Below are positions 1 through 15,618 of a stretch of 32,000 nt of DNA, in pieces. The notes under the pieces were generated by a model. It saw only the letters and a list, made by a program, of their open reading frames with translations, was not told the origin of the DNA and did no database searches. The number at the start of each line of letters is the position of its first letter. Positions within the stretch are counted from its first letter, which is position 1. Origin of the DNA: Candidatus Hermodarchaeota archaeon (GTDB taxonomy: Archaea > Asgardarchaeota > Heimdallarchaeia > Hodarchaeales > Hodarchaeaceae); the NCBI GenBank assembly GCA_048886185.1, contig JBHLKY010000014.1, positions 30,001 to 62,000 on the forward strand, written 5' to 3'. Position numbers and translations under genes: made by a program.

Positions 1-389
1 ACACCTTCAAGTTGAGGAATTTTCAGTTGCCTATTCATGGTATGAAGGGTTTTGACAAGTCCTTTGAGATCCTGACCTATCGCTTGGGTGGCTGCAGCTT
101 GCTCCAACTTAAATTTAATACCTTTTACACGACTTGCCATTTGTTGGCATCCACGAGCCATGGTTCGATTTTTCGCAACATCTTTAGCTAATAATCGTGC
201 AGTGGTCATGTCACCAGCTTCTATGGATCTTTCAACTTCTTTAAGCATCTGCTTTTCTTCTTTGAGGAGCTTATTTCGCTGACGATTCATGCGTTTTTCG
301 ACCATACGAAGCCTGACGATCCACTTACGAGTAGACCTAGAATCGCTCCCTCCGCCTTTTAACCAATTACCAAATTTATCAAAGACCAC
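1..389 (-). CDS. ESCRT-III protein, Vps2/24/46 (ESCRT-IIIA) class; 3' end runs off the window
   Basis: Not in the ORF track. Manual translation from GTG at 389 (GAGGT at 401-397 upstream) gives MVFDKFGNWLKGGGSDSRSTRKWIVRLRMVEKRMNRQRNKLLKEEKQMLKEVERSIEAGDMTTARLLAKDVAKNR...KLEQAAATQAIGQDLKGLVKTLHTMNRQLKIPQLEG, open to position 1. The basic helical hairpin and 'ARLLAKD' pattern fit Vps2/Vps24/Did2. Confidence 0.88.
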   Translation of the reverse strand, partial: MVFDKFGNWLKGGGSDSRSTRKWIVRLRMVEKRMNRQRNKLLKEEKQMLKEVERSIEAGDMTTARLLAKDVAKNRTMARGCQQMASRVKGIKFKLEQAAATQAIGQDLKGLVKTLHTMNRQLKIPQLEG

Positions 390-391
390 TT

Positions 392-1051
392 TTAGGACCT
401 CAATCCTTCTTCAATCTGTCGTCTCATTTCATCAAGTTTCTTTTTCTCAGCTTCACGTTTATCAGGAGTTTCCGAGACAGGTGTGACAGGGGTTCGTGTT
501 TCAGCAGTTGTTCCTGGTAAGGAACTAGTGGTTAATTCTGCTTCTAACTCAGCCATTTGTTTAGCGATACGATCATCTGCTTCAACATCCATCCCGATTT
601 CAGTAATTGAAGTATCCGTTAATGCTTCCTCCATTCCCGAAACCATCTCTATAGAGTCCTCCAACGCCATCATTACCTCCTCGGTTTTTTCGGGAGATGC
701 AGCCTCAATATTAGAATCAATAGCTAGTTGAGCAGAAGCTAAGGTTTCAGTTAAAGTAACATTATCAGCAGATACATCCAGGGTATCAATCGTTCGTTGT
801 AGGTTAGCAATTTTATTGTGAGTATTGGAAACCTGAGTTAAATAGAGTTCCCGTCGTTTTAATGCCTGCTGTGCGCCCATCTTATTTCCTGATTTCATCA
901 ACGTTCGAGCAAGCTCATATTGTTCATCAGCTTGGCGTTGATAATTTCGGATCTTAACTTCCATTTGGTTGATGGTACGTTTGAGCTTGGCTTTGGTTTC
1001 AGTGGAGCTAGAGGGTTTGCTGCCAGTTAAAAAACCTCTTAATCGTTTCAA
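392..1051 (-). CDS. ESCRT-III protein, Snf7/Vps20/32/60 (ESCRT-IIIB) class
   Basis: Basic N-terminal helices with GNKMGAQQALKRRELY (Snf7 'G.k..Al.aLKrKk.y' motif), acidic C-terminal half, Pro-rich linker and terminal amphipathic helix. TTG start. Confidence 0.9.
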   Translation of the reverse strand: MKRLRGFLTGSKPSSSTETKAKLKRTINQMEVKIRNYQRQADEQYELARTLMKSGNKMGAQQALKRRELYLTQVSNTHNKIANLQRTIDTLDVSADNVTLTETLASAQLAIDSNIEAASPEKTEEVMMALEDSIEMVSGMEEALTDTSITEIGMDVEADDRIAKQMAELEAELTTSSLPGTTAETRTPVTPVSETPDKREAEKKKLDEMRRQIEEGLRS

Positions 1052-1265
1052 CGGTTAAATCATCTCATTAAATTTATTGATGTATAATTATCAAACTTAT
1101 CAGTTATAAAGTCTTCAGATGTACCTTAAGTTAGAAATACTTAAATCTTTCCCATAAGTACCCCTTGACGGCTTCTGATGGTTTAAAAATGATGATATAC
1201 GTGTTTTAATTGTAAGTTCTGAAAGAATATAGTCTAAATAAACTATTCTTCTTTCAAGGAAGGTA

Positions 1266-1979
1266 TTAAACCCCTGGAAAAGAAATAACAATTCCATCCA
1301 GAGTCTCACTTCTAATAGCGATTTTTTGTTGAATTAATTGCATAATTGCTTGATTAACACGTTCCATTGTCCATGATGTCTCACGAACCAATTCAGTTAA
1401 ACTCATCTGGCCGTGAAAGCGAGCTGCCAATTCTAAGATGACTTGATGATCTTGGGTTAAGTTAGGATCAATGAAAACCACTATATTCATCCCTCCGATT
1501 TGCCTGATATCATGAATCATCCTATTCTTCTTAAGTAAATTGAGGGCTGTAGTGATATCATTGATTGAGGTTGTAATGCCTTGACTTTCATCTCCTAGCT
1601 TTAATGCTAATTCAGAGACACTAAGGAGCCCCCCCGTCTCATTTCGGATTTCCTTACCAATTTCAAGTATACGTAGAGCCAGAAAATTGTGATAATCATT
1701 CTTTCCTTTTCTCTTCGGTGTTCCGACATCATAAACTCCGATTGCACGAGGAAGGCCTAATTCCTCCCGTACAGCCATTAATCGCTGAGCAAGTGCTGGA
1801 TTTTTCTTGAGATCATCCTCATATCTTTTCTCCAGCTTATGTAAATCAGAATGCAGCTCTTTAACCTTAGCTGCCATTGTATCTAATGATTTTAAGGCAT
1901 ATTGAGCCCCCTTACGCCTCATCTCAGCTTCTTTGGTTAGTTTCTCTTCAATTTTCCTGATTCCCATGATATTGGCCAT
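1266..1979 (-). CDS. vps22: ESCRT-II subunit Vps22/EAP30-like (tandem winged helix)
   Basis: MGIRKIEEK N-terminus, DLKKNPALAQRL, DYHNFLALRILEIG and GGLLSVSEL match EAP30/Snf8 conserved blocks. Confidence 0.88.
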   Translation of the reverse strand: MANIMGIRKIEEKLTKEAEMRRKGAQYALKSLDTMAAKVKELHSDLHKLEKRYEDDLKKNPALAQRLMAVREELGLPRAIGVYDVGTPKRKGKNDYHNFLALRILEIGKEIRNETGGLLSVSELALKLGDESQGITTSINDITTALNLLKKNRMIHDIRQIGGMNIVVFIDPNLTQDHQVILELAARFHGQMSLTELVRETSWTMERVNQAIMQLIQQKIAIRSETLDGIVISFPGV

Positions 1980-2015
1980 CCTATGATGCTTTCATATTGT
2001 TTTGACTCAAATTCA

Positions 2016-2035
2016 TTTATAATCCTTTATAATCC
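2016..2035 (-). promoter_or_regulatory. Tandem TATA-like repeat (GGATTATAAA x2 on the minus strand) upstream of vps22
   Basis: Perfect 10-bp direct repeat TTTATAATCC at 2016-2025 and 2026-2035, 37-56 nt upstream of the vps22 ATG. Confidence 0.4.
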
Positions 2036-2264
2036 GATACCAGAAAATCATGCTTAAGATGATATTGTCTTTATTTTAAGTTCATTACTAGTTGTTTTAC
2101 CACTAACACCAGCTATTCAATTATTTACTTAACTGATGATTGAATCTGTTAAGCAAAATTAGAAATCCTACAATTCCCCCTTTTAATGTTAATGCATATC
2201 ATGTCAAGAGTTCTTATGCTTATAAATCCGAAGCTAGAGTTTATACCTGCTGGGATCACACACG

Positions 2265-3611
2265 GTGCTTGAGATGACTTCAGGGATATCAAATTTTTAT
2301 TGTTCATTTTGTGGCACAATGATTCGTGAATTGGATTCCCAGAAGTGTCTCGATTGTGGAGCTGCATTTTGCCAGCGATGTGCTTCACATTTACAGGTTA
2401 ATTCATCTCAGTTTAAGTGCTCTTGTGGATCAACAAATATTGAGAAAGATTCTTCCCCCCAGAATATGAAAACAGAAGCTTTAGAACAGATTTTTGAGTT
2501 AAAGCGTGCACTTAAACAAGTTGGTTACCGACCCGTCATCGTGCTTAAACGAACTGGACATCTTGAATCCAGATTACGCTCTTTTAGAAAGCAATTCTTA
2601 ATCCCAGGAAATCAAATTGACAAAATTTTTCTTGAAACCAAGAAAATTGAAAATTTCACTCTATCTGAATTTCAGGAATATTCTTCTAAATTAAACCGAT
2701 TGTACCGTAGTTTAATGGGTTTAGATTCCTCTTTTTCAGATCATCGTAATTTTTCGCTTCAGCTTACTCTTTTTCAAAAACAAGTTAAAAGTTTTGATCA
2801 GACAGTCCAAGACAAAATCAACCCAATTCATGTACTGATTGAGGATATTGAGACCCAATGTGATGTCATTGAAGAAATGTCACGTCATCTCAAGCGATGT
2901 TTTGACGCCTTTGTCTTTGTTCCTGGAGAGTTAATTATTGGCTATTTTCCAAATATTGAACTTCAGAATAGTCGGATGAGAAAGACCAGTATCGATGTGT
3001 TAATCACAACAGATAGAGTTGTTTTAGTTAAATGGAAAAGATTCAATCTCAGAGGACAAAGGACGAAAAAATTGGATGAATTTCCACCAGAAGATTTAAT
3101 AGACGTCCAAAAAACGAAAGTTGGCCTTTTAAAGCGTCATAAACTTCAAATTACAACAATTAAACATGATTATGAGTTACGAACTGATGGAGATACTCTT
3201 ATGCGAATCTTTGACGCCCTACAACTCAGTTATTACGGTCGGCCCAGTGAAATCTATGTTCATGAACCTTTCCGTGATTGGTCCTCAGAAAATTATCAAG
3301 AAAAAATTCTTTCCGCACTCAATTTCAATACAAATGAAATGAGTACTGCAAAAGGAGCCACTGAATTACAATCCACCCAGCAAAGAACACCAGATTTTGT
3401 AACAGGGGTCCTTGATGATAGATTACGTGATCTCCGATTGCGTAAGCTTGCTAATGAAAAAGCACTTCAGGAACTCAAGGAGGGACGTAAAAAGGTTTCT
3501 AGTCGTGATTATTTTGAACTAATTAAACAATTTGAATTAGAGCTTGCTAAAATAAACGAAGCTATCACTGAGCTCCTTGTTCGAACCGGAAAAACTAATC
3601 TGTTTGGGTAA
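2265..3611 (+). CDS. ESCRT-associated multidomain protein: FYVE-like 8-Cys Zn finger + coiled coil + PH/GLUE-like domain + C-terminal steadiness-box-like helical hairpin
   Basis: CSFC-x10-CLDC-x4-CQRC-x12-CSC; ELIIGYFPN...VLITTDRVVLVKW...KLQITT resembles GLUE/PH; the C-terminus LQELKEGRKKVSSRDYFELIKQFELEL resembles the SB motif of the neighbouring Vps23. Real start may be ATG 2274. Confidence 0.6.
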   Translation: MLEMTSGISNFYCSFCGTMIRELDSQKCLDCGAAFCQRCASHLQVNSSQFKCSCGSTNIEKDSSPQNMKTEALEQIFELKRALKQVGYRPVIVLKRTGHLESRLRSFRKQFLIPGNQIDKIFLETKKIENFTLSEFQEYSSKLNRLYRSLMGLDSSFSDHRNFSLQLTLFQKQVKSFDQTVQDKINPIHVLIEDIETQCDVIEEMSRHLKRCFDAFVFVPGELIIGYFPNIELQNSRMRKTSIDVLITTDRVVLVKWKRFNLRGQRTKKLDEFPPEDLIDVQKTKVGLLKRHKLQITTIKHDYELRTDGDTLMRIFDALQLSYYGRPSEIYVHEPFRDWSSENYQEKILSALNFNTNEMSTAKGATELQSTQQRTPDFVTGVLDDRLRDLRLRKLANEKALQELKEGRKKVSSRDYFELIKQFELELAKINEAITELLVRTGKTNLFG

Positions 3612-3616
3612 GAATA

Positions 3617-4225
3617 TCAGAGATTACTCATTTCTCTTCGAAAATCAGATAACCATCTTGCGACCTGCAATTCTAGCTTCTGCAGCTCATCTTGTTTTAA
3701 CAGCTGACCTGGTTTTTGCCTATCCATCCATTTAATCCATTGGTCAATATCTTGAGTGACCCAGTGATTGGAGCCATATAACCGAGTATTAGTCAAAATG
3801 GCACATAATTCATCGAGATAAGGTAGAACACGATCTACTGTTGCTATAGCTTCAAGACGTAGAAGATCAAGTAATTCAATGGCATTAGCAACAAATTCAG
3901 CAGCAATACTTGGTAATTTCTTAATTTGGCTGTAATCAATGCGATTTCGAGGAGTTTCATCAGTTCCTTCGGTTTTTCGAAGTTTTTCTAATCCATATGG
4001 ATATTTTTGGTCGATTTTTTCAGCCCGAATGAATTCATTCAAGTTAAAATTATAATCTTCCAATTTTGCTCTAATAGATACAATCGTGGACAATAAATTC
4101 TTGTGTTGCTTGTGAAAAATATTGGGATCAATCTCACCTTTTTCATACGTTCGTGAAAGCAAGTCAAGTGTGCCAATACATGCATATAATTGTCCTTCCA
4201 ATTCCCAACGGTTCACTAAAGTCAT
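3617..4225 (-). CDS. vps28: ESCRT-I subunit Vps28
   Basis: LYACIGTLDLLSRTYEKGEIDPNIF and AAEFVANAIELLDLLRL...DRVLPYLDEL match the Vps28 N-terminal core and C-terminal four-helix bundle. Confidence 0.9.
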   Translation of the reverse strand: MTLVNRWELEGQLYACIGTLDLLSRTYEKGEIDPNIFHKQHKNLLSTIVSIRAKLEDYNFNLNEFIRAEKIDQKYPYGLEKLRKTEGTDETPRNRIDYSQIKKLPSIAAEFVANAIELLDLLRLEAIATVDRVLPYLDELCAILTNTRLYGSNHWVTQDIDQWIKWMDRQKPGQLLKQDELQKLELQVARWLSDFRREMSNL

Positions 4226-4235
4226 GAATCCTATC

Positions 4236-4982
4236 CTATCCCTGATATTCCAATTGTTTTCGAATTATATAAAGTTCTTTAGTATATTTTTTGTATAAGC
4301 GTGAGTATTCGAAAATGGAAATCTCACCTGAAGCATATCGATCTTCCAATGCTGCTAGTAATTCAGATAGGGCAATATGTTCTGATTCGAGATTAGCTTG
4401 AGCTGAAAGCCTTGTGGGTTCCACCTTCTGTGTAGATGGCATTTGAACCATCTGTTGGGCACGTAATCGCGCCAATTCTTCATCTTTAGCTTGCATCTGT
4501 TGAGTTAGTGAAGATATCTCCATTCTTAATGCAGATGTTTCAGCGGAGGTCGTTTGACGCTCAATAGTAGGAGGGGTCTCCGCTAATCTAGCTACTGTTT
4601 CTCTTACTGTCTTGGCAGTCTCTCCTCGTGGAGTTGGAGGAACTCGTGACATAAGATTCTTCAATGCTATAATCACTTGATAGAGATGGAACTCCGCACG
4701 CCAATTATCCAAGATTCGGAGCTGGATAAACCCATCATTATCGATATTTGGATGATCCATGACTCCAACAGCAGTTACGACTGGTGCCACATTAGGGAAG
4801 TACTCTGGGAGAAAAATTTCGAAAGTAAACATATTACGCCCGCGATTTGTAGTATAAGTTAATGTTCCTTGCCATTTAGCTAGGGATTCTCCTACGGGGT
4901 TAAAACCTGACGCAGCTGAATTTGAAAAAACTAATTGTGCCTCACGGGCTAATATAAAATCTCGATCCATCTTGATAACCAT
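4236..4982 (-). CDS. vps23: ESCRT-I subunit Vps23/TSG101-like (UEV + coiled coil + steadiness box)
   Basis: UBC fold with HPNIDNDGFIQL (catalytic Cys replaced by Gln), Pro/Thr linker, coiled coil, and C-terminal SB motif LLAALEDRYASGEISIFEYSRLYKKYTKEL. Confidence 0.88.
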   Translation of the reverse strand: MVIKMDRDFILAREAQLVFSNSAASGFNPVGESLAKWQGTLTYTTNRGRNMFTFEIFLPEYFPNVAPVVTAVGVMDHPNIDNDGFIQLRILDNWRAEFHLYQVIIALKNLMSRVPPTPRGETAKTVRETVARLAETPPTIERQTTSAETSALRMEISSLTQQMQAKDEELARLRAQQMVQMPSTQKVEPTRLSAQANLESEHIALSELLAALEDRYASGEISIFEYSRLYKKYTKELYIIRKQLEYQG

Positions 4983-5264: not shown

Positions 5265-6479
5265 TTATCTTCCCCTAGGTGTTTTCACAGAAGTTAAGAA
5301 ATCTAAAATTGCCTCTCCCAAAAGCTCAAATGCTTGTTCAATATTCTGTCCTGTTTTGGCACTTGTTGGAAGATAATGGATCTTAAATCCACGGTATTGC
5401 TCTGAAACGTGAGACAATCTAGCAACGAACGCTTGTACCTTTTTTTCAGATACGCAGGGCATACCTACTTCCCGTAAGTCAACTTTATTTCCTAAAACAA
5501 TTAATGGAACTGGACCCCGTCCATTGTTTCTCCATAACTCATTCATCCATTTTACAATATTTTGGAAGCTCTCTGGTCGTGTCATGTCGAAAACAACCAA
5601 AGCACCCACAGCACTCATGTAATAGATTTTTCTTACATTACTGAATCGGGGTTGTCCTGCTAGATCCCAAATAAGGTATTTTATTTGTTTTCCCCCAGCA
5701 TAGACGAGATCAGATGTTTTAGCAGCTAGATCAGCACCAATTGTCATTTGATAATCGATTTTAAATCCTTCTCCAAGGTAACGTCTTCGAATAGATGTTT
5801 TACCAACTGCACCGTCCCCGATCAAAATGACTTTTAATGTATGATGTTCTTGAACGAGAGTTGCTTTAATGGATTCGATAGCACGATCGATAGCTGCTCG
5901 CAACTCTTGGTTACTCTGGATATCTTTATTTGGATACTGCTTCAAAATTTGGCAAACTTGAAATGATAAAGAGGTAATTTTATCCCTATGAACATGTTTA
6001 GAAGTGACTATTGCCACAATGAATAACTCCTCGACAATAAAAAAGTGGAAAGTCTGAGATTCTAGAGAAAGATCTTCTAGCAATTCCCCCAAATTATGTG
6101 TATAATGTGTTATTGTATTTAGGATGAGACTAACTGAATCCTGATAATTAATTGTTTTTGATAATAGATAATGAAACAATGGATTCCCACTGTTCGTAAA
6201 ACACGAAACCATGTAGATATCTTCAGTGCTTTTAGCTTCCAACCTAAATTCTCTAAATTTTTCTTTGTAATCTTTCTCAGTTTTTTCAGCTTGAGAATAA
6301 GCTTCTTCTAAGATGCTTAAGTAATCCCTCCGTCCAGACATGGCATCTTCTAGATCCACTTTTACTTTTAGTGCAAACTCTTCCATTTCATCAGCTTTAG
6401 ATTTATCAAATAATCTTGTGTCAAATGCTTTCTGTTTTTTTTCCTTTTTCTCTTGGAAAAAAGGATTATTTTCGCCCAT
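5265..6479 (-). CDS. Rab-like small GTPase fused to an N-terminal charged helical region and longin-like domain
   Basis: G1 GDGAVGKT, G3 WDLAGQ, G4 NKVD, G5 TSAK. RabF-like IGADL, KYLIW, RFSNV, YYMSA, LVVFDM. The middle domain (IYMVSCFTNSGNPLFHY...FIVAIVT) has a longin-like beta/alpha pattern. Confidence 0.82.
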   Translation of the reverse strand: MGENNPFFQEKKEKKQKAFDTRLFDKSKADEMEEFALKVKVDLEDAMSGRRDYLSILEEAYSQAEKTEKDYKEKFREFRLEAKSTEDIYMVSCFTNSGNPLFHYLLSKTINYQDSVSLILNTITHYTHNLGELLEDLSLESQTFHFFIVEELFIVAIVTSKHVHRDKITSLSFQVCQILKQYPNKDIQSNQELRAAIDRAIESIKATLVQEHHTLKVILIGDGAVGKTSIRRRYLGEGFKIDYQMTIGADLAAKTSDLVYAGGKQIKYLIWDLAGQPRFSNVRKIYYMSAVGALVVFDMTRPESFQNIVKWMNELWRNNGRGPVPLIVLGNKVDLREVGMPCVSEKKVQAFVARLSHVSEQYRGFKIHYLPTSAKTGQNIEQAFELLGEAILDFLTSVKTPRGR

Positions 6480-6656: not shown

Positions 6657-7658
6657 TTGGAAGAACAGCTGATGGGTGAATTGTTAGGTCCTTTGGATGA
6701 TCAGATAATTATTTGGATACAGACTTTTAGTCCACTTTTTGATTTTATATTTGGATTAGTTACTTTGTTTGGAGACGAACTCGTTGTTGTATTAATTATT
6801 GGTTTTTTATTTTTCTGTATTGACAAAAAGATAGCAATCAGGAGTGCATTTCTGGTTGTTATTACATACTTTTTTACAATTTTGCTCAAAGGTTACTTTG
6901 GACTTCAACGGCCATATATTGTCAATAGTGCTGAAATAAAAGGAATTCCCGATTTATTAGGCCAGCTTCCTGATGATTATACCTTTCCGAGTGGGCATTC
7001 ATCAAATGTGGGAGCGTTTTGGAGTTATTTAGCAAGTAAATGTCGCCATCGTAGTTTTTGGGTCTTAGCGATCTTGATGATTATAATTATCCCTATTTCA
7101 CGAGTTTATCTGGGCGTACATTGGCCAACAGACATCATTATTGGCGTTTTTCTAGGTGTATTGGTTAGCCTCATTTTTATTTTCCTTTTACCAAAAGTTG
7201 AAGGATTCATTGATAAGGCCAATCCGATATTTTTAGCATTTATGGCTATTATAATCCCAATTATGGGTGTTATCGTTTCTTATCTACTCATACTTAGCAT
7301 GGGTAACCAAATAGAATATGCAGACCCCAGTCCGATGGGGGGATTGTTTGTTGGCTTATCAATAGGAGCGATGCTTGAGCATAGATTTGTGAATCTAAAA
7401 GTAAAAGAGTACCGAGAGAATAAGAAGGTCCTTGTTTATCGTGCGGTCTTAGGCCTCATTGTTATCCTTGGTACATATCTAAGTATGAGTGTGATATTCG
7501 GATTACTGTTTGAAGAATGGCCGCTCAAACAGATATCACGATTCTGTAGATATGCGATACTAGCATTCGTTGGAATCTTTTGTCTTCCTTGGTTGTTTGT
7601 CTTTATTGAACAAAAACTTTCATTAGAGCCAAATATTCCCAAAAAAATGATTTTGTGA
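6657..7658 (+). CDS. PAP2-family integral membrane (lipid) phosphatase
   Basis: C1 KGYFGLQRP, C2 FPSGH, C3 SRVYLGVHWPTD; multiple hydrophobic TM segments. Confidence 0.93.
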   Translation: MEEQLMGELLGPLDDQIIIWIQTFSPLFDFIFGLVTLFGDELVVVLIIGFLFFCIDKKIAIRSAFLVVITYFFTILLKGYFGLQRPYIVNSAEIKGIPDLLGQLPDDYTFPSGHSSNVGAFWSYLASKCRHRSFWVLAILMIIIIPISRVYLGVHWPTDIIIGVFLGVLVSLIFIFLLPKVEGFIDKANPIFLAFMAIIIPIMGVIVSYLLILSMGNQIEYADPSPMGGLFVGLSIGAMLEHRFVNLKVKEYRENKKVLVYRAVLGLIVILGTYLSMSVIFGLLFEEWPLKQISRFCRYAILAFVGIFCLPWLFVFIEQKLSLEPNIPKKMIL

Positions 7659-7755: not shown

Positions 7756-8502
7756 ATGTCTGAGTCTGAGTCTCTTCTGTGTCCCAATTGTTCGGAAAGA
7801 AGTCCAGCAGGATATATTCTCTGCCCATATTGTGGCTTCGATTTAACAAAGATTATGCGTGCTAGAGAGAGAGTTCGAGTTACGTTTAGAGAAAAATTTT
7901 CACGTATATATCGAAGTTTTATTGATCCTAGAGAGAGTAAACGTCTTTTTAAAGAGATTGGAGTCAATCCTGACCGCATTGGTGCCTTAATTGTTCTTTA
8001 TTTGGTTTCAGTTGCCTTTGGTTTTCGAGTTGGAGCTTTATTTGTAAAAGGTTCTTCTCCTTCATGGCACGGTTGGGAATTTATGTACTTCTTCATTGCC
8101 CCCTGGTTTGTTGCGATCGGTCTTATCATTCTTGCGATATTTGGATGGTTTATCAGCAGTCTTATAATTTGGTTAATTGCAAAAACTCTTGGAGGAAAAG
8201 CTAGTTTTCGTGATACTCAAGGAATAGTTGGTTACTCACTTGGACCACTCATTCCCGCGTCATTAATTGTAAATCTTTTGATTACATTCATAGGGACTAA
8301 TTTAGATTCTATTACTACAACATCTTGGATTAGATATTCTATATTTGAAATCCTTTATATCCCCTTTCTGGTACTCGCAGCGTATCACTGTGGTAATGGT
8401 ATTCGTACTGCTCATTTACTCAGTGAATATTATTCTTATGGTATTAGTGGTGGCCTCACTCTATTTTATGTTGTACTTTTTCTATTACCAAATATCCTAT
8501 AA
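7756..8502 (+). CDS. Zinc-ribbon + Yip1-domain membrane protein
   Basis: N-terminal CPNC...CPYCG; about five TM helices with IAKTLGGKASFRDTQGIVGYSLGP, the Yip1 'GG...f......vgYs..P' pattern. Confidence 0.8.
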   Translation: MSESESLLCPNCSERSPAGYILCPYCGFDLTKIMRARERVRVTFREKFSRIYRSFIDPRESKRLFKEIGVNPDRIGALIVLYLVSVAFGFRVGALFVKGSSPSWHGWEFMYFFIAPWFVAIGLIILAIFGWFISSLIIWLIAKTLGGKASFRDTQGIVGYSLGPLIPASLIVNLLITFIGTNLDSITTTSWIRYSIFEILYIPFLVLAAYHCGNGIRTAHLLSEYYSYGISGGLTLFYVVLFLLPNIL

Positions 8503-8616
8503 TGCAAAGATTAAATTACACCTATTTTAATAAAATTTAGAATAATTCTTCTTACTTGAAAAGAAGAGCTGAAAAATTCATTTTTCATAGTTTAAAATGA
8601 AATCTTGATACAAACA

Positions 8617-9642
8617 TCAATCGAGATTTATCACAAATTTTAGTGGGGCTGACAAAGTGGGATCCACGACTCTAATAATTTCTCCAGATCGAAGCACATT
8701 ACCAACTTCTTCTTCAGAACTAGTGAGTTCCCGTGTTTGGTATAGTAGTGCCATTTCTGAACTAAGATTGAAAGAATAACGAAGTTGATCTATAAAGTTT
8801 CTTAACTTTTGATCCAATGGTGACCGAATCGGGATAGCTTCAAGTTGATAACGTGGGGAGCAAACAATGCAATCCTGCCGACGTTTGAGAGGCACAGAAG
8901 TAAATATCCCTGCCTCTCCATCCCAAAACAAGTATTCTTGTAATGGGGGTAATTCCAGAATAATTTTAAGGGCTTCTTGAGCCATGAGTCCTCCAATTAC
9001 AAAAGAAATACTGGATACATAAGGAATATATTCTTCCTCGATTTTATCAGCCTTAATTTCTTTTCTCTTTTCTCCAAAGGGAGTACAGGCTTTTTGAAGC
9101 TCTTCTTCAGGAATTAATGATTGACATTCTAAACAAGGAGTTTTTTGGGGAATTACCACTTGAAGATTACCAAGAAAACTGTACATTCCTCCTGAGACTA
9201 ATGGGATCCCTGTTCCGACTGCAAAAGAGTTTACCCAGCGTCTTGTTTGAAATGTATCAAGGCCATCAAGGATAACGGTTGAATTTTCTAAGATGTGGCG
9301 CGGTGCCTTTTCAATAGGCATGTATAATATATTAACATTGATTTCTGGATTAAGTCCCTTTATTACTTCTGCACCAACTTTTACTTTAGGTTTTCCAATG
9401 TCTGCGGCCCGAAAAAACAACTGTCGATTCAGGTTACTCATTTCAATTGTATCGAGGTCAACTAGAACGAGTGTACCTACTCCAGCCATAGCTAATGAGG
9501 CAGCAGCAACACTTCCCAAAGCGCCTAAACCAACTATTGTCACTGTGCTTTGTTGAAGTTTTTTCTGATCCCAATTTTTGATCAGAAGTTGACGATTATA
9601 CCGTTCTCTCATTATATGATCCCAACCACCGCCTCTGGTCAA
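8617..9642 (-). CDS. Ubiquitin-activating enzyme E1-like (ThiF/MoeB adenylation domain + C-terminal ubiquitin-fold domain)
   Basis: RYNRQ, VGLGALG, DLDTIEMSNLNRQ, CLEC and CIVC Zn pairs, probable catalytic Cys in KACTP, and a beta-grasp-like C-terminal ~75 aa. Start may be ATG 9612. Confidence 0.9.
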   Translation of the reverse strand: MTRGGGWDHIMRERYNRQLLIKNWDQKKLQQSTVTIVGLGALGSVAAASLAMAGVGTLVLVDLDTIEMSNLNRQLFFRAADIGKPKVKVGAEVIKGLNPEINVNILYMPIEKAPRHILENSTVILDGLDTFQTRRWVNSFAVGTGIPLVSGGMYSFLGNLQVVIPQKTPCLECQSLIPEEELQKACTPFGEKRKEIKADKIEEEYIPYVSSISFVIGGLMAQEALKIILELPPLQEYLFWDGEAGIFTSVPLKRRQDCIVCSPRYQLEAIPIRSPLDQKLRNFIDQLRYSFNLSSEMALLYQTRELTSSEEEVGNVLRSGEIIRVVDPTLSAPLKFVINLD

Positions 9643-9713
9643 GAATTTAAAAGTACTTCACATGCTTTACGATGTCATTTCTGACATATGAGTTTTAGAA
9701 AAACTCTCTTTGT

Positions 9714-9953
9714 TTACTTATTGCCACCTGTGGTTCGAGTGATCATGTACAATTTATCCATATCCTCGATTCCAGCCGACTTTAGAGTTTCACTCTCATC
9801 AAGTTGTTTCCCCTGAAATACAAGTATGACTGATCGAGCAGGGATTCTTTTTGTTTGAGCTACCCGTTCCTTAATGGCAGCAACGGAGTCGGTCTTCTCA
9901 CAACTCAATGTAAGTTCCCCTCCTCCAATGGCTTGGACGACATTAATCTGCAT
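9714..9953 (-). CDS. Ubiquitin precursor (pro-ubiquitin ending TTGG-NK)
   Basis: MQINV...IKERV...LVFQGKQLDESETL...ITRTTGG aligns with ubiquitin with one extra residue near the N-terminus. Start taken at MQINV (9953); the ORF track starts at 9968. Confidence 0.92.
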   Translation of the reverse strand: MQINVVQAIGGGELTLSCEKTDSVAAIKERVAQTKRIPARSVILVFQGKQLDESETLKSAGIEDMDKLYMITRTTGGNK

Positions 9954-10052
9954 TTTGAATTCCTTCATTTATACTGCTTAATCTACATAGCAATTTTTCA
10001 GCTTTTAAAATATATTGAAAGCGGTACCTGAATCTTTCCCCTCTGACATTCA

Positions 10053-10844
10053 TTAATCATTTTCAGGATCAAGGAGTGTAATACCATTAGTAGTAATCTT
10101 AAATCGTAGTGTTTTTGTTGTATGATTGGTTCCTCTCATCTTACTGATTCGGAGAATGCGCATCATTTCCCCTCGTATTGAAAGCATGTCAAGATGAATT
10201 ATAGAATCGACAATATACTCCTCCCCAAAAAGTGATTGATCCATCCCACTAGTAATTTCTGATATTGCAACTGTGGTAACATTCAATGTCGCTATATTTG
10301 CTATAAATCCTGTTGTGAGTTTTCGTAGGAATCCAGAGTCATTACCATAATCATAGAATTGAAATGCAGCAAGAGGGTCTATTACAATTCTCTCGATCTT
10401 CTTTTCTTCTACAACTTGGCTGATATGATAATATATTTTGTGTAGAAATGTTGGTAACGATGTCTCATCATACGGAACCCCTTCTGCTTCTATCATCATT
10501 TCAGATTGTTCAGCATATGTTAAACTATCAGGATCCCATAATTCCCACCCAGATGGTGTGAAATCAAGCATGGTGATTTTTTGAGGTTCAGCAAAAAAGT
10601 TATGATCAAAGAAAGAGAAGCTACTTGCATCCCGACGAATAGCCCAAGGAGGTTCTTGCATAGCAACCAAAAGGCCATTTTCATTCCGACGAGCTCCTTC
10701 TAACAAGAAGTGTAATCCAAAAATTGTTTTACCAGCTCCAGCAGGACCAATTACAAGGTTTGTGGTACCCCTAATGAATCCACCTGATGTTAATGCATCT
10801 AAAAAGGGAATACCAGTTGTCACACGAACAATCTGCTCAAACAA
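10053..10844 (-). CDS. KaiC/RAD55-family single-domain ATPase
   Basis: RVTTGIPFLD, Walker A GPAGAGKT, Walker B RIVIDP, EYIVDSII, RILRISKMRGT. Confidence 0.9.
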   Translation of the reverse strand: MFEQIVRVTTGIPFLDALTSGGFIRGTTNLVIGPAGAGKTIFGLHFLLEGARRNENGLLVAMQEPPWAIRRDASSFSFFDHNFFAEPQKITMLDFTPSGWELWDPDSLTYAEQSEMMIEAEGVPYDETSLPTFLHKIYYHISQVVEEKKIERIVIDPLAAFQFYDYGNDSGFLRKLTTGFIANIATLNVTTVAISEITSGMDQSLFGEEYIVDSIIHLDMLSIRGEMMRILRISKMRGTNHTTKTLRFKITTNGITLLDPEND

Positions 10845-10966
10845 GTTTCCACACTCTTTTTTTCATATGTCTGAAATATTATAAAGTTAAACGTACGGAA
10901 ATGAGAATTCAAATGATACATACTAAAATCCTTAATTTTTTATGAAATAGTGATCTTTAAAAAAGA

Positions 10967-11536
10967 TTATATTTGACGTTGTTTAATTAAAACCTTCCGA
11001 TTTCGCCTCATCTGTTTAACAAGGAACTGGAATGCCTGTTCAATATTTTCTCCACTTCTAACTCCTCCAGGGTCAGCAGCAACTGTTCCGAAAATATCAT
11101 ATTTGTATTCATTCATAATTTTGTCAAAAAAATTCACTCTTAAAAATTCAGGTGAAAGGGCACCTTGTAAATCTTGTTTATTGGCTATAATGAGAATTGG
11201 TGTTCGGTTAGAAATTAAACGTAAAGCATCTTCTAGCCATTGTTCATCATATTTGAAATCTCTTCTCGAACTATCTACAACAAAGACCAATCCATCAGTA
11301 GTACGGACAAACCGCTCATGATAACGCATATCAAGAAATTTTTGCTGACCTCCCACATCAACCAACCCCAATACCGATTTTTCGATTACGATATGTGATA
11401 TCCCGAATGCAATGGTAGGTCGAATATTCCTTGGGGGAGGATAGCCATGTTCTAGGTAAAAGGCTATTGAAGATTTCCCCACTCCGCTTGTTCCTAACAA
11501 TACTACCGTGTATAGGTCTTTTGAACCGCTTTGCAT
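10967..11536 (-). CDS. Arf/Arl-like small GTPase
   Basis: G1 GTSGVGKS, G2 PTI, G3 DVGGQ, FVVDSS, G4 ANKQDL followed by GALSP, all Arf-type. Confidence 0.85.
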   Translation of the reverse strand: MQSGSKDLYTVVLLGTSGVGKSSIAFYLEHGYPPPRNIRPTIAFGISHIVIEKSVLGLVDVGGQQKFLDMRYHERFVRTTDGLVFVVDSSRRDFKYDEQWLEDALRLISNRTPILIIANKQDLQGALSPEFLRVNFFDKIMNEYKYDIFGTVAADPGGVRSGENIEQAFQFLVKQMRRNRKVLIKQRQI

Positions 11537-11768
11537 CCCAAGTTTGATCCTTTCGTGAATTTTCTAAAATGAAGTTGTAAGTAAAGCATTTTCTTTTCTT
11601 TAATTACAATAAATGCGGTATCAGTTGATAATCTTAGATTTTGACGTTTATAACATCTTCGGAATGCATGGATATCAAATACCCAAATTTTTATCCTAGG
11701 GTCACGAATTTATTTTAATTAGATTGCATTTAAGAAATCAAAAGATAGTAGGATCCTTGGGATTGACA

Positions 11769-12173
11769 ATGCCTCTAGAGCCCCGAGAAGTCGAGATTGA
11801 GTCTTTAAAAACTCCAAAAGGTGATGTTCCTACAGTTAAAGGCCTTGAGACCGCAGTTAACACAGTATATACAGAAATAGCCTCACTAAACACCCACTTA
11901 TCAAAAATTGAAGAGTTTCTGACCCAGATCAGTCAGTCTTTAATGCAGATTAATGAACAACTAGATAAACAGAGTTCTAGCATTAGGAGTCTAGGAGAAA
12001 CTTTTGCAGATCTTATTGTCCAGCTAGCGCAAAATGAATCACTACAAGAACATTACAGAGATTTTTCTAGGAAACAATTGATCATCGAAAAGGCTGATTT
12101 ATTGGCATTGAAAGAAGAGTTATCCAGCATCCTAGAGCGATTGAAAGACCAAGTGACTGAAAATGAGTCCTAA
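11769..12173 (+). CDS. Coiled-coil hypothetical protein
   Basis: Long heptad-rich helical sequence. Start moved to ATG 11769 (MPLEPRE), in frame with the track ORF at 11724. Confidence 0.6.
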   Translation: MPLEPREVEIESLKTPKGDVPTVKGLETAVNTVYTEIASLNTHLSKIEEFLTQISQSLMQINEQLDKQSSSIRSLGETFADLIVQLAQNESLQEHYRDFSRKQLIIEKADLLALKEELSSILERLKDQVTENES

Positions 12174-12501
12174 TTCTGCAAAATTAATTCCAAAATTTCG
12201 ATTTCGATCATCTCCTGTTGACAATAGTGTTAGGAAGAATCAAATTCGAATCCCTACATATCTTGTTTCTTCTCATCCCTCCAAATCTTCTTTCATACAA
12301 CTTATCAGCAAAAATAAGGACAATTGGAATCCTTTTGAAATAATTAAATGCATGATTTGTTGGAAACCTATCGAAATTTATGGAAGAGATGCTGATTCCT
12401 ATATGGAATGCCCTCATTGTCACCAAAAGGCTCATCAAGATCATATGTTTCGATGGCTTGTTAAACATAAAACCTGTCCTTATTGTCGTGGGAAGTTATA
12501 G
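12163..12501 (+). CDS. Small RING-finger protein, putative E3 ubiquitin ligase
   Basis: CMIC...CPHC...AHQDH...WL...CPYC, a RING-H2-like variant. Overlaps the upstream gene by 11 nt. Confidence 0.85.
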   Translation: MSPNSAKLIPKFRFRSSPVDNSVRKNQIRIPTYLVSSHPSKSSFIQLISKNKDNWNPFEIIKCMICWKPIEIYGRDADSYMECPHCHQKAHQDHMFRWLVKHKTCPYCRGKL

Positions 12502-12505
12502 CTCA

Positions 12506-12970
12506 TTGAGTACCAAAATCCTACCTGAGGTTCTTCAACTACTTGTTCCAAGGATTGAAGATCTTATTGATTCATATTTTTCAAACCGATTACGAACATT
12601 ACCAGTTCGGATAAATCATCGAAAACAAAATATCACGATTACATGGAACATTTATCCAACAGACAGGATTTCATTGGAAGACCTATTTCAAATTCTTTCA
12701 AAGTTAATTGATGAAAACTTGGATGACATTAATGGAGAAATAATTTGTTATACTATTAGTGATGGCACTATTCGGGATAGAAAAGTCCAGGAATTTCAAA
12801 TTCATTCAGGAAAATCTTGGGAGATATATTTATATGAACCTGAAACTTTTATTGATGTACGACTCTTACTTGAGTCTTATTTAACCGAGTCACACAATAA
12901 ATGGATCTCTATTGATATCGATATTGTGACACAATCAGCATGGTTTGAATATCAAGAGAGTAATGCATGA
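12506..12970 (+). CDS. Hypothetical protein
   Basis: The track ORF (12380) overlaps the RING gene. An in-frame TTG at 12506, 4 nt after the RING stop, gives 154 aa of globular-looking alpha/beta sequence. Confidence 0.55.
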   Translation: MSTKILPEVLQLLVPRIEDLIDSYFSNRLRTLPVRINHRKQNITITWNIYPTDRISLEDLFQILSKLIDENLDDINGEIICYTISDGTIRDRKVQEFQIHSGKSWEIYLYEPETFIDVRLLLESYLTESHNKWISIDIDIVTQSAWFEYQESNA

Positions 12971-12989
12971 GTATGTTTCTATATGCATA

Positions 12990-13937
12990 TTAAATTATAC
13001 TCCACCGTTGAGTATGTGTTTCATACCGAACACGTCCCTCTTTTTCCAGTTGTCTCAGAAACGCAATAACTGTTGTTTCACCAACACCTAGCTCTTTGAA
13101 AGGGGTTTCCCAAGAGAATCCGAGTATTTTCTGGTATTCCTCCGCAATATAAAATGATTTAGCTTGCCCAGCGTTAACTATTAAGTCGTAAATAGTATCT
13201 TTAGTATGTTTATGCTCGAATATGAGATTTTGAGTGTATAGTTCAACTGGTTTAGGAATGGGGCTTTGATGAGAAGGACAGATGACTTCGGTTTTAAGTT
13301 TACTCACTAGTTCGAGTAATTTCATACGCCTTTCGGAGTTTCCTGTCCCATCAATATAGAAAGCAGCAGGTTGATCTGGATATATGTTCCCCTCATCACC
13401 AATAAATGTACATCCGCCTCTATATGCCTGTATTAAAATGGAATCAGAGGAATGCCCTCCAGAATTCTGTAGAATTAGTTCTTCCCCCCCTAAATCAATG
13501 GTTTCACTTTTATCAAATGAATGGATGAGTTCTTCTTTAACCCTTCCAAGTTTAAAGAACAAAGAAGATTTCATTACTAAACTGAACTTAGAAGGCTTAG
13601 GGAATTGTTTACTTAGGATATGATCACTCCCCTCTTTTAAGGATTCAACGCCTGATTCGTGAAGCCATACTTGTGGTTTAATTTTATTCATCGAATCTAT
13701 CCCTGCCCAATGATCAGGGTGTGTATGAGTAAGAATAAGATATCGTATTTCTGAGGGGTCACGATCTGCTTTTTTGACAAACGAAATAATATCTTTTCCG
13801 ATACCCCGAGAAGGTAGGTCTATAATGGCAATTTTTTCGTCACCTAATACTAGGTAACTAGCGTATTCTTCCCCCCCTTTTCCTACATCATCTACAACCC
13901 GATAGATTCCTGAAGCCCATTCTGTGAAATTAGCCAT
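12990..13937 (-). CDS. Metallo-beta-lactamase-fold hydrolase with C-terminal winged-helix-like extension
   Basis: THTHPDHWAG (HxHxDH), GGHS, FIGD, PSH motifs. Confidence 0.88.
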   Translation of the reverse strand: MANFTEWASGIYRVVDDVGKGGEEYASYLVLGDEKIAIIDLPSRGIGKDIISFVKKADRDPSEIRYLILTHTHPDHWAGIDSMNKIKPQVWLHESGVESLKEGSDHILSKQFPKPSKFSLVMKSSLFFKLGRVKEELIHSFDKSETIDLGGEELILQNSGGHSSDSILIQAYRGGCTFIGDEGNIYPDQPAAFYIDGTGNSERRMKLLELVSKLKTEVICPSHQSPIPKPVELYTQNLIFEHKHTKDTIYDLIVNAGQAKSFYIAEEYQKILGFSWETPFKELGVGETTVIAFLRQLEKEGRVRYETHTQRWSII

Positions 13938-14115
13938 TCTGATTCACCCTTTATTTCTTGTACTAATCTTTGAATTTTTAATGGTTTTTGGTGGAGGCGG
14001 ACATATCTCGTTTTAGTTTACTGGTTGATGATTTTAATAATAATTTTTAAAAGCAATACAAAAAAAAAGTCTCTAATAGCGAAGTAGTGTTAAGTATCCA
14101 AGTTAAAGATAGTAG

Positions 14116-15141
14116 GTGCCAGAATTGAATATTGATGAATTAATTGATCATAATTATATTCCAGTCATTGATCCCACTGCTAAGGATTCTCCAGCCGAAA
14201 AAGGCGCAAATACTTTTCTTGCAGAGTATGGTGGTATACTAGAGGAAGTGGCTCTAGTATGCAAAAAAGAAGATGGATTGGTGACCTACAGGTCGGGAGC
14301 TGCGCCCAGTGATCGGAATTATGAAAACTTTTTTACAGATTTCACCGAATTAGCAAATGATTTGGGCCTTAGAACCCATGCAATTGCCTATGCTTTCGGT
14401 GATTCCTATCTTGGAGCGGATCCAAATTATTCTATAGGCCGTTCAGACGGTACAAGTATTTTTGACTATGTTGATCCCTCTATGGAGGGATACTGGAAAC
14501 ATCTTAGTTATATTGCGCGGGAGGTTACCACAAAACCTATTAAATCATTAATTTTCCAGGAATTTCTCTTCCCGAGGCAAGAGTACTCGTTTTCACGAAG
14601 AAGCGTGAGAAAGTTTGCTGAAATCTCAGGTGTCAGCCTAGATGTTACATACATCGACATTCAAAAAGATCCTGCAATCCAAAGAATATTTGAAGATTGG
14701 CGAGTGGAAAATATTACCACCGCGTTTCGTGAGACTACAGAAGTGGCCAAAGGAGAATATCCTGACCTTGATGTTGGCATGATAATCCCTGTTGACCCAG
14801 AAACAGAATGGAATGAAGGTTTCATCAGACATTTTGGAATTAATCTTGATCAGATTATTGAAATAAGTGGTTATGTAATTTATCATCTCATGCCATATTC
14901 ACCAATGTATCCTGAACCCCATACTCCAGGATGGGATACATTACTCCGTTCAATACGTAGTTCTGGGTTGTATGAAGAAAGCGGGTATAAAAAAGCTCTT
15001 TTTGTTTGGGGACTTGAGAATGAGGAAGATGTTGATTGGCTAGACGCACTGAGAGATGAAGTTAAAGCTGATCATGTCTTCGCACGATTGGAACATCCCC
15101 CAAAATATACAGTAAAACGTGAAATACATAGGGGTGTTTAA
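14116..15141 (+). CDS. Putative TIM-barrel glycoside-hydrolase-like protein
   Basis: Alternating beta/alpha pattern; LGLRTHA, YVDPSMEGYW, FQEFLFP and HLMPY resemble GHL10/DUF4015-type barrels. No signal peptide seen. Confidence 0.45.
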   Translation: MPELNIDELIDHNYIPVIDPTAKDSPAEKGANTFLAEYGGILEEVALVCKKEDGLVTYRSGAAPSDRNYENFFTDFTELANDLGLRTHAIAYAFGDSYLGADPNYSIGRSDGTSIFDYVDPSMEGYWKHLSYIAREVTTKPIKSLIFQEFLFPRQEYSFSRRSVRKFAEISGVSLDVTYIDIQKDPAIQRIFEDWRVENITTAFRETTEVAKGEYPDLDVGMIIPVDPETEWNEGFIRHFGINLDQIIEISGYVIYHLMPYSPMYPEPHTPGWDTLLRSIRSSGLYEESGYKKALFVWGLENEEDVDWLDALRDEVKADHVFARLEHPPKYTVKREIHRGV

Positions 15142-15162
15142 GCGGAGTAAACTATAAGCGAA

Positions 15163-15618
15163 TCAGTATTGCTGATTCCAGTGAGCATACATTTTCACAT
15201 AATTTACCGCTTGGAGTTTAAAAGACTCACGATCTCTCTTCCACTGTTTGGAAGCAGAGGCATTCAATGGATCATCGGGATTAGGGCTATTTAATAGAAA
15301 ACGAATAGTTTCAACAATCTGAACAAGACTATAAGCAGGGCTCCATTCCTTACCTAATATCCCCACACACACTTTCTCTTTGAAAATGTTTACATGCCAA
15401 ATCGGGGTCTTAAAACGAACCTTTGGTGGCTCAAAAGGATATTTTCGCGGAATGTGGATCTCAATAAAGAACACTCCACCTTCATATAAACCTGATCCTA
15501 ATATTTCTCCCCGCCAATGAGTTAGATCGTTATTTACTGTGCGGAAAGTGGGCTGCTCACGGGCAAGCTCTTGGGCTTCAATTGACAATCTATCTAACCA
15601 TTCGTCCTCTGTAAGCAT
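15163..15618 (-). CDS. Ubiquitin-conjugating enzyme E2
   Basis: YEGGVF, YPFEPPKVRFKTPIWHVNI, catalytic Cys in VCVGIL, WSPAY, PNPDDPLN. Confidence 0.95.
   Translation of the reverse strand: MLTEDEWLDRLSIEAQELAREQPTFRTVNNDLTHWRGEILGSGLYEGGVFFIEIHIPRKYPFEPPKVRFKTPIWHVNIFKEKVCVGILGKEWSPAYSLVQIVETIRFLLNSPNPDDPLNASASKQWKRDRESFKLQAVNYVKMYAHWNQQY

Follow-up and report, generated by a model that had tools for sequence, protein, structure and literature searches.

Do the genes for small GTPases and membrane proteins that are interspersed among the ubiquitin and ESCRT (endosomal sorting complex required for transport) genes of Hodarchaeales form with them a single sorting module, or are they later additions to a known core? 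The question is raised by a 32,000-nucleotide stretch (hereafter, the window; contig 14, JBHLKY010000014.1, positions 30001–62000) of the 4.84-Mb genome, in 75 contigs, of a Candidatus Hermodarchaeota archaeon that belongs to the family Hodarchaeaceae (GCA_048886185.1; G000 in our genome set). An earlier note, made by a model from the sequence alone, listed genes for ubiquitin, E1, E2, a RING protein, UEV-Vps23 (UEV, ubiquitin E2 variant), Vps28, Vps22, two ESCRT-III classes, two small GTPases, Yip1 and PAP2 within the first 15.6 kb, and proposed that the embedded genes extend the cluster to a wider sorting module with GTPase and lipid control. The answer that we consider probable is that the region represents, in its Hodarchaeales form, the ubiquitin-ESCRT supercluster known from Asgard archaea, with an old layer that includes Yip1 and a set of young, lineage-specific additions.

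A Pfam scan of all open reading frames (ORFs) at window positions 1–15618 recovers every family named in the earlier note, each where the note had placed it. The ubiquitin system is represented by ubiquitin (9714..9968, minus strand, likely start at 9953; Pfam ubiquitin, 5e-15), the C-terminus of which reads TRTTGG-NK, that is, GG followed by NK; a ThiF-type activating enzyme, E1 (8617..9642, minus strand; ThiF, 3e-60); a conjugating enzyme, E2, of the UBC type (15163..15618, minus strand; UQ_con, 2e-36), with the catalytic Cys located in HVNIFKEKVCVGIL; and a RING-H2-type E3 candidate (12163..12501, plus strand) that scores below the Pfam cut-off (zf-RING_2, 3e-5) but has homologues in other Asgard classes. 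ESCRT-I is represented by Vps28 (3617..4225, minus strand; VPS28, 7e-14) and UEV-Vps23 (4236..4982, minus strand; UQ_con, 2e-13, and UEV, 7e-5), which combines an E2 fold, a coiled coil or long helical tail and a steadiness-box-like C-terminal region, and is devoid of the catalytic Cys (GFIQL at that position, with Gln for Cys). ESCRT-II comprises a Vps22/36-like subunit (1266..1979, minus strand; EAP30, 3e-17; hereafter, Vps22) and Vps25, and ESCRT-III two classes, ESCRT-IIIA (Vps20/32/60-like; 392..1051, minus strand; Snf7, 9e-12) and, 2 nt from it, ESCRT-IIIB (Vps2/24/46-like; 1..389, minus strand; Snf7 at 3–389, 2e-11), of which the window holds the 5' two thirds. The full ESCRT-IIIB ORF, of 204 amino acids (aa), extends 225 nt past the window edge and is followed on the same strand by Vps4 and Vps25, after which comes ribosomal protein S2. 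Because Vps25, the second ESCRT-II subunit, and Vps4, with its MIT, AAA and Vps4_C domains, lie 0.3–2.3 kb upstream of the window, the left border given in the earlier note cuts the cluster, which is about 18 kb long once these two genes are counted. Judging from the coordinates, gene direction alternates along these 18 kb, with co-directional runs of Vps22, ESCRT-IIIA, ESCRT-IIIB, Vps4 and Vps25; of a longin-Rab fusion, UEV-Vps23 and Vps28; of PAP2 and Yip1; of an Arf-like GTPase, a KaiC-like ATPase, ubiquitin and E1; and of a coiled-coil protein (cc149), RING and an uncharacterized protein (u196), whereas a 448-aa gene, a metallo-beta-lactamase-fold (MBL) gene, a 341-aa gene (u341) and E2 are separate units.

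The core observation is already in the literature: as the earlier note had stated, ubiquitin-ESCRT clusters of this type are described in Asgard archaea (Hatano et al. 2022; Makarova et al. 2024). The synteny of B3_Heim, which belongs to the same GTDB genus as the window genome, is drawn in Fig. 1C of Hatano et al. 2022 (PMC9192718), where GTPases and Yip1 go unmentioned. The preprint "Origin of eukaryotic-like Vps23..." (bioRxiv 10.1101/2023.07.25.550441) describes a Hodarchaeia cluster that includes Yip1 together with a Rab-like GTPase, and states that ubiquitin, RING and the uncharacterized asCOG005522 accompany UEV-Vps23 in several classes. The new points are modest: a phylum-wide neighbourhood of Yip1 and ubiquitin genes, structural confirmation of a longin domain, and a recurrent pairing of GTPases with KaiC-like ATPases.

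For the comparison across Asgard archaea, a Vps28 profile yielded 80 loci from species-representative genomes (the closest 19, which share 65–84% identity, include B3_Heim and 'Ca. Hodarchaeum mangrovi'), and hidden Markov models (HMMs) built from genus orthologues and widened with first-round matches were used to annotate the neighbouring ORFs in these 80 loci, in 26 Yip1-anchored metagenome loci and in 40 Yip1-anchored loci from a set of 301 Asgard genomes. As the HMMs were built from the loci themselves, very divergent homologues may escape detection. Family codes denote GTDB families: f1 and f2 are two Hodarchaeales families, f3 is Heimdallarchaeaceae, f17 and f19 belong to Hermod- and Baldrarchaeia, f5 and f7 to Heimdallarchaeia, and f22 and f25 lie outside Heimdallarchaeia. 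The 20 same-genus genomes that have a Vps28 match all carry the same genes in an unchanged order, as far as the contig extends, and nine fetched same-genus stretches cover Vps25 through E2, so the co-location of the cluster genes is not due to chance. Departures from this order are extra genes between Vps22 and the 448-aa gene in two genomes (G008 and G017) and the absence of MBL and u341 from their slot in two others (G001 and G016).

Beyond the genus, the cluster separates into two layers. The old layer, common to other Asgard classes, consists of E1, E2, ubiquitin, RING, cc149, UEV-Vps23, Vps28, Vps22, Vps25, Vps4, ESCRT-III and a zinc-ribbon Yip1; the locus order in Baldr- and Hermodarchaeia is a leucyl-tRNA synthetase (LeuRS)-like gene, Yip1, E1-E2-(ubiquitin)-RING, then the coiled-coil gene, UEV-Vps23, Vps28 and Vps22. 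The young layer, restricted to Hodarchaeales or to the genus, consists of the longin-Rab fusion, the Arf-like GTPase with the KaiC-like ATPase, PAP2 and the MBL-fold protein; u341 is intermediate between the two. Within the old layer, cc149 (11724..12173, plus strand) is a helical or coiled-coil protein with weak coiled-coil Pfam matches only, and its gene overlaps that of RING by 11 nt. In Baldr- and Hermodarchaeia, its homologues are flanked by RING and UEV-Vps23, and cc149 and RING keep their place beside UEV-Vps23. This agrees with the pair of RING and asCOG005522 in the preprint cited above, and cc149 probably corresponds to asCOG005522, the 'Vip-like' protein that partners RING. The 448-aa zinc-ribbon/coiled-coil protein (2265..3611, plus strand; no Pfam match) is kept at the slot between Vps22 and Vps28 in all same-genus loci and, by position and domain order, is most likely the counterpart of Znr_PH_CC_SB, which Makarova et al. 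(2024, bioRxiv 10.1101/2024.02.06.579148) describe as probably being part of Asgard ESCRT-I. A 441–456-aa gene between Vps22 and Vps28 in f4, considered as a diverged form of this protein, was rejected as it encodes an RsmB/F methyltransferase.

We conclude that the zinc-ribbon Yip1 gene has long accompanied the ubiquitin genes and tracks them more closely than it does ESCRT genes or the GTPase. The protein (7756..8502, plus strand, convergent with E1; Pfam Yip1, 2e-15) consists of an N-terminal zinc ribbon, CPxC...CPxCG, and a multi-span Yip1 domain (PF04893; 57.7 bits against a cut-off of 28.6). The zinc-ribbon Yip1 profile matches 237 of the 301 Asgard genomes, and the linked relatives are proteins of about 250 aa with the same ribbon and the Pfam Yip1 domain. 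In 9 of the 19 sampled Asgard families (40 contexts plus the Hodarchaeales loci), Yip1 lies at most two ORFs from E1, E2, ubiquitin or UEV-Vps23: f1, f2, f5 (2 of 3 genomes), f6 (one genome), f7 (1 of 2), f17 (4 of 4), f19, f22 and f25 (2 of 2); in f9, it is 5–6 genes away from ubiquitin-system genes. The reverse search gives the same picture, with ubiquitin-system genes accompanying Yip1 in 20 of the 22 informative metagenome loci found by the Yip1 profile. Most families have Yip1 and E1 in convergent orientation; in G023 and G041, Yip1 is co-directional with and upstream of UEV-Vps23 and Vps28, and in G022 it lies between RING and E1. Since these arrangements differ among lineages, the neighbourhood has outlived rearrangements. 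In a maximum-likelihood tree, these Yip1 proteins are separate from two of the three other Yip1 paralogues of the window genome, and the linked state is present in both main branches. A complex prediction for ubiquitin, the UEV domain and the N-terminal 75 residues of Yip1, run without controls, gave a score of 0.01, which is evidence neither way. On the side of Yip1 opposite to E1, a LeuRS-like class I aminoacyl-tRNA synthetase (964–972 aa) is always found at L116:2545–5463, L120:2255–5149 and the Baldr- and Hermodarchaeia loci; a methionyl-tRNA synthetase (MetRS) gene lies 1.4 kb beyond E2 in the window, and the parallel between the two synthetases is probably a coincidence.

The label 'longin-Rab' given in the earlier note to the 404-aa protein upstream of UEV-Vps23 (5265..6479, minus strand; Pfam Ras at residues 216–391, 3e-39) proved apt for both domains. 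The longin fold occupies residues ~88–207 and the Rab-like GTPase residues 213–396. The G1–G5 motifs of the GTPase are intact (GDGAVGKT, DLAGQ, NKVD and SAK are readable), and the top Foldseek matches of this domain are Rab1/8/10/11/43 and a Thorarchaeota Rab, at 29–35% identity. The C-terminus, ...SVKTPRGR, contains no Cys that could be prenylated, and the protein is therefore Rab-like rather than a bona fide Rab. No Pfam longin match was obtained by sequence in the 404-aa protein, and the Atlas feature search of this region scored only 0.81–0.83, which is a lead only. The AlphaFold2 (AF2) model of the full-length protein was poor (predicted local distance difference test score, pLDDT, 59), and the longin region, residues 78–208, was then folded alone with 14 orthologues (pLDDT 86; predicted template modelling score 0.83). 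The elements of this model, E11–18, E23–28, H35–52, E65–72, E76–83, H88–104 and H114–130, follow the longin order, and a Foldseek search with it produced 32 PDB matches at E≤1e-3 (6e-5 to 1e-3; template modelling scores 0.50–0.62), all 32 listed being longin-domain proteins or coat and adaptor subunits, such as zeta-COP, the N-terminal domains of AP sigma and mu, Fuzzy, Ykt6, VAMP7, Mon1-Ccz1 and TRAPP subunits. On the strength of this predicted structure, a longin domain is present, and the structural support is new.

The distribution of this fusion is narrow. The profile of the longin part matches within the genus (18 of 21) and gives one weak match in f7. In the sister family f2, one contig breaks off within a Rab-like gene that is two ORFs away from Yip1 and E1; the gene fragment obtains equal scores with the longin-Rab and with a different paralogue. 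In Heimdallarchaeaceae, a 177–184-aa Rab-like gene lies 0–4 genes from the block of ubiquitin, E1 and a UEV-Vps28 fusion, but its orthology with the longin-Rab was rejected: this GTPase ranks about 14th in Heimdallarchaeum endolithica (35% identity against 50–51% for the best), and its best matches in the window genome are other GTPases. The ORF of about 103 aa upstream of this GTPase was likewise rejected as a longin relative (hhalign probability of 0.4%, empty Pfam scan). The conserved Heimdallarchaeaceae block upstream of the ubiquitin, E1 and UEV-Vps28 fusion genes (L096:4538–7950; L106:7280–9050; some 16 further loci) contains this ~103-aa helical ORF, the 177–184-aa Rab-like GTPase, a 206–266-aa ORF, a PIG-L family deacetylase and an ORF of about 130 aa. 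The window genome encodes about 60 small GTPases among its 4,623 ORFs, so that it is not unusual for a locus to have a GTPase nearby.

The second GTPase (10967..11536, minus strand), the first gene of the run that ends with ubiquitin and E1, is a divergent Arf-like protein: Arf is the best Pfam model (1e-17; 64 bits), Ras (8e-13; 49 bits), Roc and Gtr1/RagA also pass, and the closest paralogue in the genome is only 30% identical. Its N-terminus, MQSGSKDLYT, has neither a Gly2 myristoylation site nor an amphipathic helix, for which there is no room because the P-loop begins at residue 15. Orthologues are restricted to Hodarchaeales (19 of 21 in f1, 2 of 2 in f2, and 0 of 59 in other Heimdallarchaeia, at E≤1e-18). 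The KaiC-like ATPase that follows (10053..10844, minus strand; Pfam KaiC, 2e-44; Walker A, GPAGAGKT) consists of a single RecA-like domain of 263 aa that matches positions 1–229 of the 231-position model; in the absence of a tandem domain, it can be called KaiC-like only, not a clock KaiC. In f2, the KaiC-like gene again follows the Arf-like GTPase, with other neighbours upstream, and the two contigs break off within the KaiC-like gene, so that any ubiquitin and E1 genes downstream lie beyond the sequence; the link of the KaiC-like gene to ubiquitin genes is seen in Hodarchaeaceae only. Three of the five KaiC-like genes in the window genome are directly downstream of a small GTPase gene, the other two such pairs being located on contig 10 (41667–43618) and contig 3 (146309–147680). 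Given that the pairing recurs, the two genes seem to form a portable module, with one copy lying upstream of ubiquitin and E1 in this family. A second Vps22/EAP30-like ORF (230 aa) is located on contig 11 (29241–31430), three genes upstream of another KaiC-like gene and away from the main cluster.

The PAP2 lipid phosphate phosphatase (6657..7658, plus strand, 97 nt upstream of Yip1; Pfam PAP2, 9e-22, 77.7 bits) is a polytopic protein that retains the three catalytic motifs KxxxxxxRP, PSGH and SRxxxxxHxxxD (KGYFGLQRP, PSGH and SRVYLGVHWPTD, respectively). It occupies the slot between the longin-Rab and Yip1 in 14 of 18 genus species (among the loci with this slot are L014, L016, L017 and L020–L022) and is absent in the remaining 4. 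These PAP2 proteins form two clades on opposite strands that are 30–35% identical to each other, and the best match of each clade in the window genome is the other clade; this could reflect either inversion with fast divergence or replacement. No PAP2 gene was seen beside ubiquitin or ESCRT genes outside the genus in the Vps28-anchored, metagenome and Yip1-anchored loci, and 'lipid control' by PAP2 is without comparative support. The MBL-fold protein (12990..13937, minus strand; Lactamase_B, 2e-13) was likewise not seen beside ubiquitin or ESCRT genes outside the genus in the annotated Vps28- and Yip1-anchored loci.

The 341-aa protein u341 (14116..15141, plus strand) may be glycoside-hydrolase-like, of the GHL10/DUF4015 type, a lead that comes from the Atlas feature search (0.94–0.97 to GHL10/DUF4015 clusters) and from a GHL10 match, at 6e-4, in one homologue. 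It is found directly beside ubiquitin and RING in f9 (2 of 2 genomes) and beside Yip1 and E1 in 1 of 3 f5 genomes (homologues at L166:12867–13886 and L161:8879–9874), and this recurrence beside ubiquitin genes suggests more than a passenger. The u196 gene (12506..12970, plus strand; protein of about 155 aa, no Pfam match), which starts 4 nt after the RING gene, has homologues near Yip1 in f22, f23 and the metagenome loci L135 and L136. Past the cluster, the right half of the window carries housekeeping genes of archaeal or eukaryote type, including those for ribosomal proteins L44e (25943–26245) and L28e (31213–31638) and a GPN-loop (ATP_bind_1) GTPase (27865–28620). Three window ORFs of 316–378 aa (19412–20548, 20579–21529 and 26733–27851) have no Pfam match, and the 378-aa ORF adjoins MetRS and is kept across the genus. 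Rfam and tRNA scans of the window returned no match. A search for sequencing runs listed DNA runs only, which probably derive from the source samples.

The test that the earlier note had offered for its wider module, namely, retention of the embedded genes beside ubiquitin and ESCRT genes in related lineages, thus yields different outcomes for different genes: Yip1 passes, being retained beside ubiquitin genes in 9 of 19 families, Hermod- and Baldrarchaeia included, whereas the longin-Rab is not retained as an orthologue (its longin profile is bound to the genus save for the weak f7 match), the Arf-like/KaiC-like pair is confined to Hodarchaeales, and PAP2 is confined to the genus, with gaps and in two diverged forms. 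The comparison therefore lends no support to one module 'with GTPase and lipid control'; of the proposed extension, Yip1 alone stands.

That all embedded genes (longin-Rab, Yip1, Arf-like, KaiC-like and PAP2) make up one sorting module, in which the GTPases and the lipid phosphatase control ubiquitin-dependent ESCRT sorting, would fit with their sharing of co-directional runs with the core or with each other (longin-Rab with UEV-Vps23 and Vps28, the Arf-like/KaiC-like pair with ubiquitin and E1, PAP2 with Yip1), with the retention of the gene set in the genus, with the persistence of PAP2 in the same slot despite its divergence, and with the Rab-like fragment near Yip1 and E1 in the sister family. 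We nevertheless hold it to be very unlikely, given that the annotated loci and the profile searches revealed no PAP2, MBL, longin domain or Arf-like/KaiC-like pair next to ubiquitin or ESCRT genes outside Hodarchaeales; that the 4 species without PAP2 argue against an essential lipid step; that GTPase–KaiC-like pairs occur elsewhere in the genome without ESCRT genes; and that two GTPases in a 22-gene cluster are only mildly unexpected (about 0.3 expected, by an estimate from the genomic frequency given above). Nor is retention in the genus informative: the flanks past E2 (MetRS, the 378-aa gene and others), which are unrelated to the cluster, are also syntenic in 9 of 10 same-genus genomes. 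Genus-level synteny was therefore rejected as functional evidence.

The opposite explanation, that every non-core gene, including Yip1, is a passenger whose adjacency is left over from an ancestral gene order, draws on several observations that also weigh against the layered reading that we prefer. Within-genus conservation, being equal in the flanks, is background that says nothing on function, and the related genomes in our counts are not independent. Yip1 and E1 are mostly convergent, hence not co-transcribed, and may have inherited their side-by-side position; in Baldr- and Hermodarchaeia, the LeuRS-like gene keeps its place next to Yip1 just as constantly. Yip1 is unlinked in f3, f4, f11, f21, f23, f24 and f28, that is, it is elsewhere in many Asgard families, although some of these cases may be non-orthologous because f11 and f28 form a clade that groups with the long branch of the third (contig-6) Yip1 paralogue of the window genome. 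In a control search, the Yip1 Pfam family also matched E. coli, B. subtilis and methanogens, and a family common in bacteria and other archaea is by itself without trafficking meaning. We still judge the passenger explanation unlikely for Yip1: the adjacency with ubiquitin genes is present in at least 9 GTDB families, three named classes among them; the partner (E1, E2, ubiquitin, RING or UEV-Vps23) and the orientation vary, which is not expected from one passively inherited order; and the chance that Yip1 directly adjoins the roughly one ubiquitin-type E1 per genome is, by our estimate, less than 1 in 1,000 per lineage. A different question is what the core does. ESCRT-III and Vps4 divide cells in other archaea, and the cluster might serve mainly in cell division or membrane repair rather than in cargo sorting, with ubiquitin regulating the machinery itself. 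The mono-ubiquitylation of UEV-Vps23 by a Helarchaeal cascade, reported in the available text of the preprint (bioRxiv 10.1101/2023.07.25.550441), and the continuation of the ESCRT-III/Vps4/Vps25 run into ribosomal protein genes would be in line with such a role. The conserved polytopic membrane partner and the UEV reader are no less compatible with cargo or membrane targeting, and sequence does not separate sorting from division. We rate a predominant role in division or repair as improbable.

Under the layered reading, the parts, their order and their distribution are taken as observed, and the steps of tagging, reading and membrane remodelling are modelled on work with relatives, for which E1-E2-E3 conjugation activity and UEV-ubiquitin binding have been reported (binding was demonstrated by Hatano et al. 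2022, PMC9192718; see also the available text of bioRxiv 10.1101/2023.07.25.550441). By analogy, E1, E2 and the RING protein would tag targets with ubiquitin, and the tag would be read by the UEV domain of Vps23; ESCRT-I (UEV-Vps23, Vps28 and probably the 448-aa Znr_PH_CC_SB-like protein) would pass the task on to ESCRT-II (Vps22 and Vps25); and ESCRT-III and Vps4 would remodel and cut the membrane. Judging from the gene neighbourhood, the strongest candidate for a partner embedded in the membrane is Yip1, which could serve the ubiquitin/ESCRT-I machinery as an anchor, a receptor or a standing substrate. By the same token, the longin-Rab, which is encoded 282 nt upstream of, and co-directionally with, UEV-Vps23 and Vps28, might be a later, Hodarchaeaceae-specific switch for ESCRT-I; because it carries no lipid anchor itself, it would depend on a membrane-located protein partner. 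The pair of Arf-like GTPase and KaiC-like ATPase may be a self-contained signalling module that landed upstream of ubiquitin and E1 and provides an added regulatory input.

A bolder proposal, which we put forward tentatively and think somewhat unlikely as a whole, is that the zinc-ribbon Yip1 is an ancestral, membrane-embedded component of the Asgard ubiquitin-ESCRT system, acting either as a receptor or anchor that draws E1/E2/RING or ESCRT-I to the membrane, in the place taken by ESCRT-0 in eukaryotes, or as a standing substrate, with the longin-Rab added beside it later in Hodarchaeales. If this is true, a Yip1-Rab partnership beside ubiquitin-dependent sorting would predate eukaryotes, to which Hodarchaeales are among the closest known archaeal relatives. 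Whatever its role, the comparison separates one old companion, the zinc-ribbon Yip1 (possibly along with the GHL-like protein and u196), from several young additions, and cautions against taking the entire 18 kb as one eukaryote-like trafficking module; it also points to the partner that is worth testing first in the newly cultured Hodarchaeales strains (bioRxiv 10.1101/2025.02.26.640444).

Compared with known systems, the locus shares with Asgard ubiquitin-ESCRT clusters the genes for ubiquitin, E1, E2, RING, UEV-Vps23, Vps28, Vps22, Vps25, two ESCRT-III classes and Vps4, as well as the sub-operon logic, with vps25 alongside vps4 and ESCRT-III, and vps22 next to the ESCRT-I genes. It differs in that Vps22 shares its direction with ESCRT-III, Vps4 and Vps25, and not with Vps23 and Vps28. 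The separate gene for the Vps28 C-terminal domain found in other classes was not seen in Hodarchaeaceae loci (no ORF of about 100 aa between Vps28 and Vps22), where the slot instead holds the Znr_PH_CC_SB-like gene. With respect to the available text of the 2023 preprint (10.1101/2023.07.25.550441), the longin domain of the GTPase, the Arf-like/KaiC-like pair, PAP2, the GHL-like gene, and the presence of the Yip1-E1 adjacency also in Hermod-, Baldr- and other lineages go beyond what is described there. Like the Asgard Rag-like fusions, the only GTPases for which longin fusions are mentioned (PMC10933270; Liu et al. 2020 preprint), the 404-aa protein has the longin domain N-terminal to a small GTPase, and its fold order, beta-beta-alpha-beta-beta-beta-alpha-alpha, matches that of longin regulators (Mon1-Ccz1, TRAPP and CPLANE/Fuzzy); its GTPase, however, is Rab-like, not Rag/Arf-like. 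The KaiC-like ATPase resembles its archaeal relatives in being a single RecA-fold protein encoded beside a signalling protein, and lacks the double domain of the clock KaiC. Makarova, Galperin and Koonin reportedly described archaeal KaiC-like ATPases as signalling partners in 2017. Finally, the archaeal Yip1 resembles eukaryotic Yip1/YIPF proteins in being a polytopic Yip1-domain membrane protein, here encoded 1.3 kb from a Rab-like GTPase, and differs from them in bearing an N-terminal zinc ribbon. The prenylation Cys of the Rab, on which contact with Yip1 relies in eukaryotes, is absent from the GTPase here, and the archaeal Yip1 gene tracks the ubiquitin genes rather than the GTPase.

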